64,000 bases of DNA from Pseudomonadota bacterium (GTDB lineage: Bacteria > Pseudomonadota > Alphaproteobacteria > Paracaedibacterales > CAIOTO01), in the NCBI GenBank assembly GCA_040387495.1, contig JAZKDQ010000004.1, positions 1 through 64,000 of the forward strand, in the 5' to 3' direction. Positions within the stretch are counted from its first letter, which is position 1. The number at the start of each line of letters is the position of its first letter. The notes under the pieces are model-generated. The model did not search any database and was not told the DNA's origin. It saw only the letters and a list, made by a program, of their open reading frames with translations. Below, in pieces: positions 39,972 through 50,508 of the stretch. A program made the translations under genes and the position numbers.

Positions 39972-40814
39972 GTGACAATTATGAATGTTTACACTTTACT
40001 AAAATTCATTTACTTTTCAATTATTTCAATAAGCTCATTATATGCCTCGACTACTCCCAACATAGATGTCGAACCTGCTGGCATTATAGAGGTAAGGATT
40101 GCGTGTTTTCGTGAAAAAAATGCTGAGATTTCATCTTCCTTAGAAATCTTAAAACAGGATTGTGAAGCCAATTTCACCCCATATGTTGAACCTTCAGATA
40201 TTACAATAGGAACCCCCTGGCTAACGGAAGAAGGGCCAAACTACATTGCTTTTGATAAAGAAAATACACCGTTAGGTTTTTTAGCTGTTGGCTGGAATAT
40301 GAGTCAAAAAGAAATGACCGAAAAATATAATCAACAAATGAATTCAGTAATTCCTGAGAATATTAGCTCACAAATACGTGCCGATTTTACAGAAATTAAG
40401 GACTATAGTAGTGAGCTCTCACAATTAATTACACTATCACCTGCAAAAGCTTCCGAAGTTTTTGGTGGAAGCTATAATATTTTCATTTACGTTTCCTCAA
40501 ACGCGCGTGGACGTGGTATAGGCCAAAAACTAATGTCTTGTTTGCCTGGGATTATGCAAGAAAAATTTCAAGAAGGATTAAACATACGATATTCATCTAA
40601 AATTTCTAATTTACCTTCTATTGCTTTGTTTTTAAAAACATCAAAAGAAATGGACCATTTGCCAGATGTTTATCTAAAAGCAACAAAAACTGAAAGCAGG
40701 TTGATAGAAGAGGGCTTAGCATATGATCAGATGATCTCTTTTCTTTTATCACCTAATTCTGAAGGCAGTGGATATAACATTATTGATAAGTTTATAAAAA
40801 ATTTTAAAAAATAA
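39972..40814 (+). CDS. Orphan putative secreted GNAT-fold protein
   Basis: Leader ending SSLYA; acetyl-CoA motif A IYVSSNARGRGIGQKLM; SNLPSIALF. Confidence 0.7.
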   Translation: MTIMNVYTLLKFIYFSIISISSLYASTTPNIDVEPAGIIEVRIACFREKNAEISSSLEILKQDCEANFTPYVEPSDITIGTPWLTEEGPNYIAFDKENTPLGFLAVGWNMSQKEMTEKYNQQMNSVIPENISSQIRADFTEIKDYSSELSQLITLSPAKASEVFGGSYNIFIYVSSNARGRGIGQKLMSCLPGIMQEKFQEGLNIRYSSKISNLPSIALFLKTSKEMDHLPDVYLKATKTESRLIEEGLAYDQMISFLLSPNSEGSGYNIIDKFIKNFKK

Positions 40815-42763: not shown

Positions 42764-42865
42764 GTCATGCTCGGATTTAATCCGAGCATCTATAAAGATG
42801 AAAAAGCAAATAATTAAGGTGATATTGAACCAGCAGAGATACTCGGGTCAAGCCCGAGTATGACA
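42764..42865. repeat. REP/RPE-like palindromic element
   Basis: GTCATGCTCGGATTTAATCCGAGCATCT ... AGATACTCGGGTCAAGCCCGAGTATGACA. Confidence 0.8.
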
Positions 42866-42967: not shown

Positions 42968-43246
42968 TTACTGGATAGAACAACATCCTTTATGGTGCAA
43001 TGGCTTTTCTGTCGCATCCTCTGTTTCATTTACTTTACTTTCAACAGGTTTATGTGATGCGGAATCAACCTCCGCCTTAGTATTTTCTTGTTCATGTGTG
43101 GATGGTTCTTTTTTATGAAGCACTGCTTTATTTTCTCTTTTTTTATTTATCTGCGCCATTAAGTCCGGGTCCATCGCGTTGAGAGAAGGGATAAGCAAAT
43201 ATCCCAAAATCCCGTAAATACTATATTTTCTTATTTCTTTTAGCAT
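42968..43246 (-). CDS. Small putative secreted protein ending in a CaaX box (GCCSIQ)
   Basis: SD AAAGGA, signal peptide ..LLIPSLNA-MD, hydrophilic body, TGT TGT TCT ATC CAG TAA. Confidence 0.7.
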   Translation of the reverse strand: MLKEIRKYSIYGILGYLLIPSLNAMDPDLMAQINKKRENKAVLHKKEPSTHEQENTKAEVDSASHKPVESKVNETEDATEKPLHHKGCCSIQ

Positions 43247-43463
43247 AATAAAATCCTTTCGTTGTTTTAACAACATTTATTCTTATATGTTCCTATAAAT
43301 GAAAACTTCCATATTAAACATACAATAACTAATCATACATTATTTTAACAATCAGATTTACAGAATTTGCATTTCAGGCAGATGAAATTTACGCTAAAAA
43401 ACAATCAGAAAAAGATCATCTGTGATGATGGCAGATAAACAGTTTATTTCGGCTCTAGTGGCC

Positions 43464-43991
43464 TTAAATACCTTTTAAAAAGGTTTCCAAAATATCGATT
43501 GACGAACCCACACTTTCATCAGCGGTGTGAATAACCTCATATCCCAGATCCGTGGCTTGATTGAGCAGATAATTAGCCCAATTATCCATATCCTTATTAA
43601 CAAGATCTGCCTGGTTTCTTTCGCTAATTAGTCTTCTATGTCTTTCATCCCGCTCCCCATGAATCAATACAATTGTGTGTTTTTTTACATTATGTTGCTT
43701 AAAAGCATCCCTGATAAACGTAAGCTCTGTTTGCCCTTCGATGAAAACAACATCTTTGTCTGAATGATTTTCTACGATAAGCCTCACCCATTCATACGTC
43801 ATATCTTCTTGCCACTTTTTACTTGATCCATGTCTTTCGATCATTTCTTCAACCGCAGGAACGCCGATAGAATCAAAGTATAAAAAACCTATATTTGACC
43901 TGTGTTTATATTTTTCAGATAAAGCTTTGGTCAACGTAGTTTTACCTGCGCCTGAGGCGCCCGATAAAAAAACAACATGTGCATTGGTCAT
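43464..43991 (-). CDS. P-loop kinase-like (AAA family) protein
   Basis: FLSGASGAGKTT, YFDSIGVP, FIEGQ. Confidence 0.8.
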   Translation of the reverse strand: MTNAHVVFLSGASGAGKTTLTKALSEKYKHRSNIGFLYFDSIGVPAVEEMIERHGSSKKWQEDMTYEWVRLIVENHSDKDVVFIEGQTELTFIRDAFKQHNVKKHTIVLIHGERDERHRRLISERNQADLVNKDMDNWANYLLNQATDLGYEVIHTADESVGSSIDILETFLKGI

Positions 43992-44027: not shown

Positions 44028-45791
44028 CTAAACACTCTTTTTATCAGGCAAAAATCCACCTACCTGCGCATCCCACAATGTCTTATACAAACCTTTATGT
44101 GCGAGCAATTCATCATGCGTACCATCCTCGACAATATTTCCTTGATCAAACACCAAAATACGGTCCATCCGCAGCAGAGTCGACAAGCGATGAGCAATGA
44201 TCATGGTTGTTTTGTCTTGCATTAAATCCCACAAGCTTTCCTGGATATCGTGTTCCGTGACTGAGTCCAGCTGCGATGTGGCTTCATCCAAAATCAAGAT
44301 CGGGGCATTTTTCAAAATAGCCCGTGCAATAGCAATACGTTGTCGTTGTCCGCCTGACAGTTTAATACCCCGCTCACCAACCAATGATTCATACCCACTT
44401 GGCTGCTTTTCAATAAAATCATGTGCGCGTGCACGTTTAGCAGCTTCGATGACCTCTTGATCCGTGGCGCCAGCTCTGCCATAACGAATATTTTCCATGA
44501 GCGTTCGATGAAACAATGATGGTTCTTGAGGAACCATGCCGATTGACGCGCGCAAGGAACGTTGCGTCACATTTTGAATAACATGTCCATCAATAATAAT
44601 ATTACCAGCTGTAATGTCATAAAGTCTTAAAATCAAATTCACGAATGTCGTTTTACCGCTACACGAGTAGCCAACCAAACCAACCTTTTGCCCTGCATCA
44701 ATAACAACCGACAAATTTTTAAAGAGAGGCTTCGTACCTTTATAATGAAACGTGACTTTATCAAAGGTAATTTCCCCTTTGGTTACTCGTAACGTTTCCG
44801 CATTTAATCTATCTTTGATTTCAAATGGCGCTAACGCTACGCGCAATCCTTGTGTGATGTGCCCTACATACTCAGAAAAATTAAGCATATCTATGGATAA
44901 ATAAAAAAGACTGTCAATAATCATTATATTAAGAGTTAAAAGTAAGACAAAATCACCTGCTGATACAGTGCCATCCTTAAATCCTTTTATTAAAAGAATA
45001 AATCCAATGGCCTGGTAAATAACAAACGACAAACCCTGAAACGCAAACATTACTAAAAATAACCAATCACGTCTTTGAGCAACAACCACATATTCATCAA
45101 GATGTATTCTAAATTTTTTCGATTCTGCTTTTTTTGCCGAAAACAGATGAACACTTGTAATATTGCTTAAAATATCAACGATCTGGCCAATAACCGTTGA
45201 ACGTACTTCGGCAGATTTAGTGCATAATTTCTTAGCACGTATTGCAAAAAAGAGAGAGCTTGCAATAAAGATAATGAGCCATAAAGCGAGCAGCACTGAA
45301 AATTTATAATTGATTGTCCAAACCGTAAAAATGGCGATTAGTAATGCTAAGAAAAGCGTGAAAAAATGGTTGACGCTCAGCTTTAACAAACTTGGAATGC
45401 CGTCCATTACATCGTTGATTTTATTAGCCAAGTTACCAGCAAAGTGATCCTGAAAAAGTGTTTGTGAGTGCCCCATCATTCGTTTCATAAGGGTATCGCC
45501 TACGTGACGCTTTAATGGAGGATTTAGCTTTAACCATATAAAATCAGAAAACCGAGATACAATAATGATAAGCAATGACATTGATACGTAAAAAATTGCC
45601 GGGATGGACAGTTCTTCAATGGCGGTATCGGGTGTTAGACCTGGAATCTTATCCAAAATTATCTTTAAAATATAAGGCCTTAAACTGAGGTCAATCGCCC
45701 ATAAAAGTCCTATGATAAATTCTGCTGCCATCAAGAATTTAAATGGCTTAAGGCTTTCTAGAATAAACCCACGTATACGGTTATTTTTCAA
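44028..45791 (-). CDS. ABC exporter, fused permease/ATP-binding protein
   Basis: TM domain, GYSCSGKT, LSGGQRQR, LDEATS, IAHRLST; paralog of 40975..42741. Confidence 0.92.
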   Translation of the reverse strand: MKNNRIRGFILESLKPFKFLMAAEFIIGLLWAIDLSLRPYILKIILDKIPGLTPDTAIEELSIPAIFYVSMSLLIIIVSRFSDFIWLKLNPPLKRHVGDTLMKRMMGHSQTLFQDHFAGNLANKINDVMDGIPSLLKLSVNHFFTLFLALLIAIFTVWTINYKFSVLLALWLIIFIASSLFFAIRAKKLCTKSAEVRSTVIGQIVDILSNITSVHLFSAKKAESKKFRIHLDEYVVVAQRRDWLFLVMFAFQGLSFVIYQAIGFILLIKGFKDGTVSAGDFVLLLTLNIMIIDSLFYLSIDMLNFSEYVGHITQGLRVALAPFEIKDRLNAETLRVTKGEITFDKVTFHYKGTKPLFKNLSVVIDAGQKVGLVGYSCSGKTTFVNLILRLYDITAGNIIIDGHVIQNVTQRSLRASIGMVPQEPSLFHRTLMENIRYGRAGATDQEVIEAAKRARAHDFIEKQPSGYESLVGERGIKLSGGQRQRIAIARAILKNAPILILDEATSQLDSVTEHDIQESLWDLMQDKTTMIIAHRLSTLLRMDRILVFDQGNIVEDGTHDELLAHKGLYKTLWDAQVGGFLPDKKSV

Positions 45792-46306
45792 AACACCCTC
45801 CCGCTGTCTTTACCAAGACAAGAGATATTCTGTGGTGATAATAACCTATCCCCTTCCACACAACGAGGAGAAAGGATTACATCAAATCAACCAGGAGACT
45901 TCAGCCCTTCGCATGCACTCTGCGCAGCGTCTCAAAATCACCCGTTGAAATTGCTGCAATACGTCCTGTGATTTTCTTAAAGCACACGCGTGATACACCT
46001 TCGATAGGATGTAAGGTATTTAGACTGAGGTGGATAGCATGTGCCAAACTAAAATCCTTTCTAAAATTACATTCAATGTCCTTAAAAAATAATTAGAAAT
46101 CTGTCAAAAAAAAGTCAACTAGGTAGATACCCTGTTTATTTGTGTAATACACATTCATGTATTATCATATATTACCAATTAAATACATGTATTGCAACAA
46201 ACAACGTATACAGATATTTTTTTAAATGCATGTTAATTAAATAGTGTATATATGCACCATTCATGCTACTAATCTCTTTGTTAAAATAAAAGAAAAGCCG
46301 CAAACA

Positions 46307-48061
46307 ATGAATCGCCTAATCCTATCCTTAATTTTTTTAATAGCAACGCATACTGCATGTTTTTCAAGCGTAATTGATGTAGAGGTGTCAAGTGAAGAGG
46401 ACTTAAATAGTAGAAGAAAGGCAATTGCAGAGCAATATGAAGAATGCAAACGGAGAGAGGGATTGCAAGAATATAACGCTGATCCAATTTTTCAGCAAGA
46501 AACAGAAAAATTAAGAACAGAAGCTGACGACGGCATGATGGACCTTGCAAAAGCAGGATACGTAGAGGCACGCATTTGGCGAGGAAAGAGAGAACTTCAA
46601 CCACTAGAATTTCACCGTGATATGATTTTGTCCTCTTTAAAAGATGCAGAAGAAAACTTAAATAAAAAAGAAAATGGCATAAAACTCAAAGAAGTAAGCA
46701 AAAAACTCAAAGAAGTAAGCAAATTGCGCCGAGATCTTCAGGATATCTATGAACATCTTTGTGACAGTGAAAATGACTTTAATTTATTGAAAGAGTACAG
46801 GAAAAATAAAGTTAAAGTTGTTCATGATATGCAATATTATCAAGACAATAATATTTGTCCTTTTACGTTATTTGATAAAGATGAAGAACAAGAAGAACAT
46901 GATGAGCTAGAAAATCCTCCTTCTTTAGCTACACTACAGATATCCCCTGCATCTGCTCCAATTACATATGATGAAGTTGCTATTTTTAAAAAAAGCACAC
47001 AGAGGGTGCTAAACGAATTAATAGAAGTTGAAACAGTTTTACTGAAATCAAATGCAGCGACAGAAGCACTACACTTTATTAAACTCATTCGAGATCATAT
47101 TACCCAAAATGATTATCTAAATAGCGTAGACGATCGATCTGACGACTTTGTTAAATTTATTTTCAACACAATACGAGAATCTACAGACTACAGCTATGCG
47201 ACAAAACCTTCATTCCGCGCCATTAGCCATGTACGAGATGCATTATTTAGCGCCCTTATTCGACTAAGTGACGAAAATGTAACGTCAGCAGAAATTCTGA
47301 TGTCACTCACAAATTGCTTACTGACACCCTCAAATAAGGATGATATTCACGATACAATCGACTGCGTAAAAGCAGAACTTCAACTTATTGGTGAGATAAG
47401 GCGATATTTGTGCGCGCTTAATGGTCCTAATGATTACGCAAAATTAGTACATAAAAAACTCCATGCGGCTAAAGATGAAAACAAGATGAGACAATATTAT
47501 ATGAATGATACAGATTATGATTCATGGGTATTTGTTGACAGTTTGTTAGAACCTGCCAACAATCGATTCTTTACGCTTCAGACGTTTTTTATAAATGCAT
47601 CTTATAACCCATACAAAAATGTCATAGGCTCAGTAATGACTGGCTTTATGGATTTTGGTAGAAAACATTTTACGACAACACTCGCTGATATTGAAAAGTA
47701 CGCGCGAAATAAGAATAAAAGTGATTGCTCATATTACGTATACGTACAACCAACTGTAGGGAAACCAGTTCAAACTATTTTGATTTCTAAAGATGGCCCT
47801 TATAGCATTCGTTATCATCATGTAAAAAGCAAACTAACGATCGGGTATTTGCAAACTTATCCATATGACACACACGCTAATCGATGGATTTCAAATTCAT
47901 CAGGTCATTTAGTATGTGATGGCGAAAATGTAATCATAAAATATGCCAGATATGATGCATCTGAATTTGTGACGCCAGCAAACAGACTTCATAAAGATGG
48001 GTTTCTAAATGCCACGTCATATAGTGAAGAGGAAAAGTTGCTAGGTTATGCACATTTCTAA
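46307..48061 (+). CDS. Large orphan putative secreted protein
   Basis: Leader MNRLILSLIFLIATHTACFS; long uninterrupted AT-rich ORF with a 21-bp tandem duplication (KLKEVSK x2) at 46682-46723. Confidence 0.7.
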   Translation: MNRLILSLIFLIATHTACFSSVIDVEVSSEEDLNSRRKAIAEQYEECKRREGLQEYNADPIFQQETEKLRTEADDGMMDLAKAGYVEARIWRGKRELQPLEFHRDMILSSLKDAEENLNKKENGIKLKEVSKKLKEVSKLRRDLQDIYEHLCDSENDFNLLKEYRKNKVKVVHDMQYYQDNNICPFTLFDKDEEQEEHDELENPPSLATLQISPASAPITYDEVAIFKKSTQRVLNELIEVETVLLKSNAATEALHFIKLIRDHITQNDYLNSVDDRSDDFVKFIFNTIRESTDYSYATKPSFRAISHVRDALFSALIRLSDENVTSAEILMSLTNCLLTPSNKDDIHDTIDCVKAELQLIGEIRRYLCALNGPNDYAKLVHKKLHAAKDENKMRQYYMNDTDYDSWVFVDSLLEPANNRFFTLQTFFINASYNPYKNVIGSVMTGFMDFGRKHFTTTLADIEKYARNKNKSDCSYYVYVQPTVGKPVQTILISKDGPYSIRYHHVKSKLTIGYLQTYPYDTHANRWISNSSGHLVCDGENVIIKYARYDASEFVTPANRLHKDGFLNATSYSEEEKLLGYAHF

Positions 48062-49266: not shown

Positions 49267-50508
49267 ATGAAAAAAACTAATAAGGCACTAATCTGTGCTT
49301 TTAGTTTATCGTTGTTAAGCAGTGTCGCATTTTCGAGCGACATGCAAGATGATGGCCGAATGGACGTAGATTCGGCAGTGAGTCAATCACATGCTACGAT
49401 AGCACGCACCAATATTGTTTCTGAGGATAGCCTGGCACAAAAGGGTGCTGTATCAGGTAAAAGTGGCGAGGATATCATTACAGAAGCAGTCACCGCAAGC
49501 GGTAATAACTGGTATTCCCCACCTGGTATGGATATGATTTTTGCCTTATTTCATGGTATCTTAGAAATGAATCCAACGCCGGAAAACGAACGTAAAGCTA
49601 GAATTATTGAAGGTGTATTTGGTAAAAATCGTGAGCACTTTTCACAGGAAGCATTAGCAGCAGATCCATTCACACAGTCAATGCGCGTGGCAGTAACATC
49701 AGATAGCTTTCTTGAATCTCCCGAGTCATTCACATCTAAATATGCTGGTGCATTTAAGCAGCGCTACAACACTGAACTAACGTTTACCGCAACATCTGCA
49801 ATGGAAGACAAAATTGTGATCGAACACATTTTTGATTTGAACAAAAATTGGCAACACAGAGCAAAGGAAGACATGATCCGATTTATACCAGCTAATGGAT
49901 TGCCACGTAACGTAAATGCCTTCGAATTTAAGAGACTAAAAATGAATTACTGCTTTAAGGATGGAGTCAATTTATTATCAATTCCATTTGTAGGCGATAG
50001 ATATGCCGCACTCTTTAGATATAATTCAACTGATAAAAATGATGTTAATTTCCCCACAAACAGTGATTTTGAAACGTTATATGAACCATCAAATGGCAAA
50101 TATAAAGCAAAATTCACTGAATTAATGGGGTCTGTGATGATACCTTTTAGCAGCATGAAAGCTAACAAAGTTGATTTTATACCTATTCTGGCAAATACAC
50201 CATTAAGCGCGACGTATCAAAATCAATTCGATCCACTTTTTTTTAATAAAAGGTCAATATTAGAAGTAAAGATTTCACAAGAAATTAAAAAAGCACAGTT
50301 TAATCATATAGGCGCTAGTATTTGTGTGAAAAGTAGAGCCTCATTCGTGCAAGCTGACAGCATGGGGAGTGGGAAATCACTTTATGTGCAAGGGCCTTAT
50401 TCACTAGCGGTTGCTGATCTTTATACGGGGAAACTTTGTTTTATGCAAAAGATAACGGATTTCGACTCTCTCGTTGAAATTGAAGAAGGGTATGACTCTG
50501 ACTACTAA
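49267..50508 (+). CDS. Divergent serpin-fold putative secreted protein
   Basis: Leader; NNWYSPPGMDMIFAL, HIFDLNKNW, NLLSIPFVGDRYAAL, VMIP, GPYSLAVADLYTGKLCFMQKITD follow the order of serpin consensus blocks. Confidence 0.65.
   Translation: MKKTNKALICAFSLSLLSSVAFSSDMQDDGRMDVDSAVSQSHATIARTNIVSEDSLAQKGAVSGKSGEDIITEAVTASGNNWYSPPGMDMIFALFHGILEMNPTPENERKARIIEGVFGKNREHFSQEALAADPFTQSMRVAVTSDSFLESPESFTSKYAGAFKQRYNTELTFTATSAMEDKIVIEHIFDLNKNWQHRAKEDMIRFIPANGLPRNVNAFEFKRLKMNYCFKDGVNLLSIPFVGDRYAALFRYNSTDKNDVNFPTNSDFETLYEPSNGKYKAKFTELMGSVMIPFSSMKANKVDFIPILANTPLSATYQNQFDPLFFNKRSILEVKISQEIKKAQFNHIGASICVKSRASFVQADSMGSGKSLYVQGPYSLAVADLYTGKLCFMQKITDFDSLVEIEEGYDSDY

Follow-up and report, generated by a model that had tools for sequence, protein, structure and literature searches.

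A small putative exported protein with a CaaX-type CCSIQ end in a Paracaedibacteraceae-related genome, and its possible farnesylation by a protist host

Prenylated bacterial effectors and the organism under study

Hosts are known to prenylate bacterial proteins in a small number of cases, namely injected effectors of Legionella and Salmonella. In Legionella pneumophila, the Pel/CMP proteins (PelC and PelE/LegG1 among them) and AnkB are farnesylated or geranylgeranylated by the host and thereby brought to the cytosolic face of host membranes (PMC13081727, PMC2916131). These effectors carry F-box/ankyrin or RCC1-like domains and are injected by the Dot/Icm type IV system, with no Sec signal. In the case of Salmonella, a host-lipidated C-terminal Cys motif promotes the membrane association of SifA and GtgE (PMC13423502 and bioRxiv 10.1101/2020.11.05.369652). 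Both are folded proteins, acting as enzymes or adaptors, that reach the host through a type III system; their phylum is not that of the bacterium described here. The adjacent Cys residues of SifA take a second lipid. Comparable ends are found in eukaryotes on the PRL phosphatases (CCIQ or CCVQ) and on RhoB (CCKVL), and the hypervariable region of H-Ras is a similar tail; in these CC-aaX proteins a disordered tail bears a farnesylated Cys, a palmitoylatable Cys before it and basic residues nearby, and the tail is attached to a folded GTPase or phosphatase domain made in the cytosol. In the accounts cited here, every characterised CaaX effector is injected by a type III or type IV system.

The protein considered here, P0001, is encoded in a window of 64,000 nucleotides, by which we mean the whole stretch of DNA that was analysed. 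The assembly is that of an uncultured organism (1.66 Mb in 20 contigs, about 39% G+C, 99.9% complete), and DNA of the stretch is present in watershed and lake-water metagenome runs. The genome is placed in the Alphaproteobacteria by ClpX, and its HdaA is 70-81% identical to those of four MAGs, the one with a family-level name being Candidatus Paracaedibacteraceae. Two intact TLC ATP/ADP translocases have been found in the genome together with one copy carrying a stop and one fragment, and this family was not found in any of 14 control genomes. The matches lie at C8:53033-56164 and C14:94182-99439, the interrupted copy having an in-frame TAA and the fragment measuring 72 aa, which shows duplication and decay of energy-parasitism genes. 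According to a review, the Holosporales live in obligate association with eukaryotes, for the most part protists (PMC11909080). Judged by its relatives, by the 1.66 Mb genome size and by genes such as those for the TLC translocases and the TssC type VI sheath, the organism is probably an intracellular symbiont of freshwater protists. Described Paracaedibacter species lie naked in the host cytoplasm.

As regards secretion, the genome has a TssC type VI sheath gene, one secretin, TolC, and both DsbA and DsbB, so that the periplasm is expected to be oxidising here. No T2SS pseudopilin was found in the genome, and neither were VirB4, VirD4 and DotH, the DotH search having been run without a positive control. 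Furthermore, searches for the alpha and beta repeats of protein prenyltransferases gave no match in it (the beta search, too, had no positive control), and any prenylation would therefore be the work of the host. Type VI substrates normally have no Sec signal, and the type VI system is not known to take Sec substrates. It is named as the most credible Holosporales secretion system in the same review, where it is also stated that experimental data on molecules secreted by Holosporales do not exist (PMC11909080).

The gene, its product and its only homolog

The coordinates given in the earlier note for the 92-aa ORF are exact; the ORF lies on the minus strand and ends in EKPLHHKGCCSIQ followed by a stop (Table 1). 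A longer form of 102 aa is also open from an in-frame ATG at 43276, 30 nt upstream, and it is this start that the public gene call P0004 takes. The codon log-odds of P0001 is 0.164 per codon, on a table trained with 533 ORFs of this genome (350 aa or longer) that average 0.196 (sd 0.057); each of the remaining five frames scores negative. On the strength of this score, of the ribosome-binding site and of a homolog of the same length without indels, P0001 looks like a real gene. Identical pieces of the stretch were found in one run from the same study. A 195-nt soil contig reaches only the final 23 nt of the ORF, close to the contig's own end, where differences go unlisted, and it is therefore uninformative on the tail.

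Table 1. Coordinates of P0001, of its parts and of the other genes discussed (positions in the window unless a contig label is given)
Feature	Position	Strand	Description and basis
P0001, 92-aa ORF	42968..43246	minus	Small, exported-looking, mostly disordered, CCSIQ end; TAA included
ATG of P0001	43246-43244	minus	
Stop TAA of P0001	42970-42968	minus	
Shine-Dalgarno-like AAAGGA	43254..43259	minus	7 nt 5' of the ATG at 43246; read from sequence
Residues 1-24, Sec-type signal-like segment	43175..43246	minus	MLKEIRK / YSIYGILGYLLIPSL / NA, putative cut before MD; AlphaFold2 and hydropathy, cleavage site by inspection only
Residues 27-44, predicted helix	43115..43168	minus	PDLMAQINKKRENKAVLH; WH2 candidate of the earlier note; AlphaFold2, pLDDT about 70-78
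Residues 80-92, conserved C-terminal block	42971..43009	minus	EKPLHHKGCCSIQ; 12/13 identical in P0002
CaaX-type tetrapeptide C89-S-I-Q92	42971..42982	minus	Read from sequence
Cys88, preceding the CaaX	42983-42985	minus	
Generic ABCB-type exporter	44028-45791	minus	Upstream of P0001
175-aa P-loop kinase-like protein	43464-43991	minus	Upstream of P0001; matches the P-loop part of Zeta_toxin and AAA_18 only
Exporter paralog with in-frame TAA	40987-42741	minus	Downstream of P0001; 69% identical, residues 1-585
280-aa protein	39972-40814	plus	Signal-like N-terminus; weak GNAT acetyltransferase match
605-aa orphan ORF and the TTAA-N7-TTAA site upstream of it	46222-48061	plus	No Pfam or NCBIfam family
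413-aa orphan ORF	49267-50508	plus	No Pfam or NCBIfam family
503-aa orphan P0005	C13:107393-108904 (= L099:2394-3905)	plus	Signal-like N-terminus, CVIS end
199-aa SH3_3 protein of Pseudooctadecabacter jejudonensis	L109:3001-3600	minus	HKGCCTIQ end

The N-terminus of P0001 displays the features of a Sec signal peptide handled by signal peptidase I (MLKEIRK / YSIYGILGYLLIP / SLNA, before M), beginning with basic residues, continuing with a hydrophobic core some 15 residues long, and having a Pro at -5 and an Ala at -1 before Met25. The best Kyte-Doolittle windows reach 1.01 over 19 residues and 1.88 over 11; such a core is neither long nor hydrophobic enough to span a membrane stably, and agrees with a cleavable signal peptide, which would be removed after Ala24. 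P0001 also passes a crude signal-peptide rule, which is over-inclusive. There is no lipobox of the type L-[AS]-[GA]-C, since residues 1-87 contain no Cys; in the homolog P0002, described below, ILGC is found at 13-16, where P0001 has a Tyr at 16. The mature part of 68 aa contains 11 Lys and Arg, 13 Asp and Glu, 5 His and exactly two Cys (88 and 89), the second of which stands precisely four residues from the C-terminus and is followed by CaaX residues and stop (C89-S-I-Q92-TAA). From a structural perspective, AlphaFold2 run on a two-sequence alignment predicts helices at residues 2-23 and 27-44 and gives a pLDDT below 50 across most of residues 48-92; with some 40 residues before the motif predicted disordered, access to the tail should be free. 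The ESM Atlas model has a pLDDT of 0.48, and on this poor model the ESM Atlas search returned no usable feature match, all structure rows having a TM below 0.5. Inspection, hydropathy and AlphaFold2 thus bear out the signal peptide, the disordered charged body and the HHKGCCSIQ end of the earlier description.

The same cannot be said of the suggested resemblance of the mature N-terminus to a WH2 helix and of the link to actin drawn from it. The WH2 consensus consists of an amphipathic helix followed by an LKKV/LKKT-type motif; no match to a Pfam WH2 or thymosin profile was obtained, VLHKK / VIHKK occupies the place of that motif, and the single continuous helix shown by AlphaFold2 over residues 27-44 has been counted against the idea. 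The conserved basic helix is a candidate binding motif.

An exhaustive phmmer search of 1.84 billion representative proteins returned one true homolog, P0002, from an ENA metagenome with contigs of at most 2187 nt. P0002 is also 92 aa long, has no indel and no internal stop, and is identical to P0001 at 63 of 92 positions (68%). The signal peptide is identical at 20 of 24 residues, the helix block is conserved as PDL..I.KKREN..V.HKK, and a further island, PVESKV.ETE, follows after a poorly conserved middle region. The terminal HKGCCSIQ is kept at all eight positions and EKPL-HKGCCSIQ at 12 of 13, the first His of HHKG being replaced by Asn; this makes the tail the best-conserved block of the mature protein (12/13 versus 63/92 overall). 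By our own arithmetic, the chance of an identical run of eight residues at 68% identity is about 0.05. In both proteins the mature part has two Cys, both located in the tail. The proposal of a lipidation signal had been made to depend on conservation of the CaaX end among homologs, and the motif is indeed kept in the only one known, P0002; resting on one homolog (1/1) in a two-member family, this apparent conservation is thin.

No other relative was recovered. With the single sequence as query, a k-mer search of 5.8 billion clusters matched P0001 alone, and with the two-sequence profile it matched only P0001 and P0002. Six-frame searches of 60 relatives and, using the profile, of the 61 other genomes of the order revealed no homolog, the only matches being weak and lying within unrelated long ORFs (best E per genome, 0.009), and a search for related loci in genome and metagenome contigs gave nothing. 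Neither P0001 nor P0002 matched a Pfam family at E<=10, a threshold at which the HMMER filters drop most matches above about 0.1. A further phmmer match, P0003 (E=2e-4, 29% identity), was set aside as low-complexity, with four repeated stretches. By these comparisons, P0001 is a near-orphan, lineage-restricted gene.

Interpretation of the CCSIQ tail

A count of CaaX ends against expectation, put forward in the earlier note as a way to judge the motif, gives no clear enrichment. Of 1462 called genes, 17 (1.16%) have a Cys at -4, no more than the background given by 1.22% Cys overall, and ends matching C-x-[ILVM]-[SMQAC] number 3 where 0.99 are expected (Poisson P=0.079). When the motif is defined in a second way, the three canonical CaaX ends include that of ribosomal protein S8, where it is plainly due to chance. 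Among the 426 genes that pass the crude signal-peptide rule there are 2 canonical CaaX ends versus 0.29 expected, with a P of 0.03 that is post hoc. From this genome alone, the tail is not clearly more than chance.

In favour of the prenylation reading, the 503-aa orphan P0005 also has a signal-like N-terminus and a textbook CaaX end, CVIS (Table 1). It contains a coiled KENEQKLKE repeat and has no family match; in 40 relatives the sole match was in G015 (E=9.7e-5, 28% identity over residues 211-339 in a 553-aa frame), and it looks like chance. A strain variant of P0005 that is 95% identical keeps CVIS despite two indels just upstream.

The quality of CSIQ as a substrate can be read from an all-CXXX screen in yeast by Kim et al., in whose supplement (PMC10320760) the tetrapeptide has a Ydj1 heat-map score of 4.79, the positive cut-off being 3, and a Ras-based heat-map score of 16.7, but a raw Ydj1 enrichment of only 1.06. 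By these published scores, CSIQ is acceptable to farnesyltransferase, with the proviso that they describe the yeast enzyme and not that of the host of the present organism. Neither Ile at a2 nor Gln at X belongs to the residues that the authors find discriminated, and in the same paper farnesyltransferase accepts most CXXX sequences (PMC10320760), so that a good motif score discriminates little.

A degenerate DNA pattern for HKGCC[S/T]IQ followed by a stop found one match in 596 billion bases of genomes and nothing in metagenome contigs. The match is the true C-terminus of a 199-aa protein of Pseudooctadecabacter jejudonensis, presumably a free-living marine bacterium, with an SH3_3 domain, a signal-like N-terminus and a Cys-containing C-terminal domain that has no Pfam family (Table 1). 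Like P0001, it combines a signal-like N-terminus with nearly identical last eight residues; unlike P0001, it has a folded SH3_3 domain, and only the 8-mer aligns, which was searched by design. Since about 1.6 chance matches to the pattern are estimated, the protein is not regarded as a relative of P0001. Its GCC probably pairs with other Cys, given that it is a folded protein with a Cys-containing C-terminal domain, and it shows that exported bacterial proteins can carry tails of this kind where prenylation by a host is not expected.

For P0001, the following course of events can be proposed. The protein would leave the cytoplasm through the Sec pathway and lose its signal peptide by a cut after Ala24, leaving a 68-residue protein made of one short basic helix and a long disordered linker of acidic and basic residues. 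The mature protein would then cross the outer membrane and reach the host cytoplasm, where Cys89 in the terminal CSIQ would be farnesylated by the farnesyltransferase of the host and the neighbouring Cys88 could subsequently be palmitoylated. P0001 would thus be anchored on the cytosolic side of a host membrane, the conserved helix and the linker motifs being free to bind a partner. The weak link is topology: a Sec signal leads to the periplasm, and no onward route was identified. Release through the outer membrane by vesicles, TolC or leakage is pure inference on our part; for a symbiont lying naked in the host cytoplasm, any such release would expose the tail to host enzymes.

When compared with the systems described above, P0001 shares the CaaX box with AnkB, PelC and PelE/LegG1 of the amoeba-dwelling Legionella pneumophila, and its own bacterium probably lives in protists too. 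It differs from them in being 68 disordered residues with no domain, and no sequence similarity to the Legionella prenylated effectors was detected in k-mer, phmmer and Pfam searches. It also has a Sec-type signal, and the searches for DotH, VirB4 and VirD4 as marks of an injection system found none of them. The analogy with Legionella and Salmonella effectors drawn in the earlier note, which assumes type IV or type III injection, is not supported. With regard to the eukaryotic CC-aaX proteins, the tail of P0001 is set on a bacterial signal-peptide protein, and k-mer, phmmer and ESM Atlas searches gave no homology. If farnesylated, P0001 would resemble Pel/AnkB and SifA/GtgE in action, as a minimal and Sec-borne counterpart that has no sequence in common with them.

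Host farnesylation of P0001 is the single most likely reading of these data, and it is held tentatively, its chances being put below even. What stands of the original host-prenylation idea is that the motif is real and kept in the homolog, that CSIQ scores as a substrate of the yeast farnesyltransferase and that the genome is symbiont-like; what tells against it is the lack of a clear CaaX enrichment and the combination of a Sec-type signal with the failure to find VirB4, VirD4 or DotH. Close behind comes the quite possible alternative that P0001 is a bacterial envelope protein retained in the periplasm or at the cell surface, whose HKGCC tail would act as a flexible soft-metal thiol arm or form a disulfide link with a partner, the CaaX end being coincidental. 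C-terminal vicinal Cys pairs are known to act as metal-handling arms, for instance in MerA, and this alternative is favoured by the Sec signal-like N-terminus with no identified route across the outer membrane, by DsbA and DsbB, by the restriction of Cys to the tail in both mature family members, by the signal-bearing P. jejudonensis protein from a bacterium that we take to be free-living, and by the unremarkable frequency of CaaX ends genome-wide; a bacterial role would preserve the tail just as well. Against it, no metal, redox or mer-type genes adjoin P0001, whose neighbours are the ABCB-type exporter, its broken paralog and the P-loop kinase; moreover, the first His of HHKG is not maintained in P0002, a disordered peptide of 68 residues without a fold would be odd for a metal or redox protein, and the narrow distribution is typical of fast-evolving host-interaction genes.

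It has also to be considered that P0001 may be a disordered, host-directed protein acting through PDL..I.KKREN..V.HKK and PVESKV.ETE, with an unlipidated C-terminus whose CaaX end arose by chance. This is unlikely. In its favour, about one canonical CaaX end is expected by chance per genome, the conserved islands are three and do not consist of the tail alone, and the accessory region around the gene holds further orphans with N-termini that are signal-like by inspection. Against it, no block of the mature protein is better conserved than the tail and, if in the host cytoplasm, a disordered CSIQ end would be expected to become farnesylated given the broad specificity of the enzyme. Far less probable still is the view that there is no gene at all, only a reading frame that happens to have stayed open in AT-rich intergenic DNA, with an ABC exporter operon on one side and a decayed paralog on the other. 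Its shortness, the lack of a family, the adjoining pseudogene and the fact that no RNA run carrying the stretch was found would agree with this, while the codon score in the range of real genes with all other frames negative, the good ribosome-binding site and the 68% identical homolog of equal length, free of stops and indels, argue the opposite. Returning to host farnesylation, its more specific form, in which a Sec-route protein of a symbiont without a type IV system is released, farnesylated and palmitoylated by the host and serves as a lipid-anchored tether or decoy, is a doubtful proposition.

If the tail is lipidated, the prenylation trick would extend to old and widespread protist symbionts without known effectors, and an ordinary Sec-route protein would prove to be capturable by host lipidation enzymes. 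P0001 would then be the first CaaX effector independent of an injection machine and, together with the CVIS-ending 503-aa orphan, it would constitute a small 'prenylome', the first among Holosporales-type alphaproteobacteria; it is also small enough that it could serve as a minimal natural membrane-targeting tag. Among the matches listed by a literature search, no paper joined CaaX with Holosporales-type names, and the search gave no paper pairing CSIQ with farnesyl, neither result being proof of absence. If instead the tail is unlipidated, the case would be a caution that about one canonical CaaX end per small genome arises by chance.

Genomic surroundings

P0001 sits in a patch without a counterpart in close relatives, and nothing ties it functionally to its neighbours. 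The closest ortholog of the upstream exporter (in G004, 67% identity) is not adjoined by a small CaaX ORF. The downstream exporter paralog is split by its in-frame TAA into ORFs of 129 and 460 aa, and is for this reason taken as a recent pseudogene or a strain-specific nonsense allele. Of 20 relatives, only one, from another family of the order, has a match to the P-loop kinase-like protein, with 31% identity. The stop of the kinase gene is followed by an AT-rich hairpin with a T-run, seen by eye at 43396-43430. Two further readings have been discarded. Self-prenylation followed by ABC export, in the manner of a-factor and Ste6, is scarcely credible, as no prenyltransferase repeats were found and the Sec signal speaks against it. 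An epsilon/zeta toxin-antitoxin pair formed by the kinase and P0001 was rejected because only the P-loop part of Zeta_toxin is matched (residues 6-49) and P0001 has a signal peptide.

As for regulatory elements, a scan for promoters and terminators gave counts at or below the shuffle level. A TTAA-N7-TTAA site (the CtrA-box pattern) is found at 43464-43478, 218 nt upstream of the ATG of P0001 and overlapping the stop of the kinase gene, and the window contains 9 such sites versus 4.8 expected, a number reached in 6 of 100 shuffles; control of P0001 by a CtrA box was rejected, the site being too distant and the excess too weak. A 23-nt palindrome, ATRCTCGG-N-CCGAGYAT, occurs in two copies at 42767-42789 and 42839-42861, within 100 bp downstream of P0001. 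Only 4 copies exist genome-wide, the others being at C3:141282 and C14:104656, and these palindromes may represent either hairpins of a terminator-like kind or a small repeat element.

Further along the window, on the plus strand, two orphan ORFs of 605 and 413 aa have been noted (Table 1), the former with a signal-like N-terminus, MNRLILSLIFLIATHTA, and with a perfect TTAA-N7-TTAA site just upstream, at 46222-46236. On the other side of P0001, the 280-aa protein with a signal-like N-terminus owes its weak GNAT acetyltransferase match to residues 170-221; if it is an exported acetyltransferase, it would be an unusual one.
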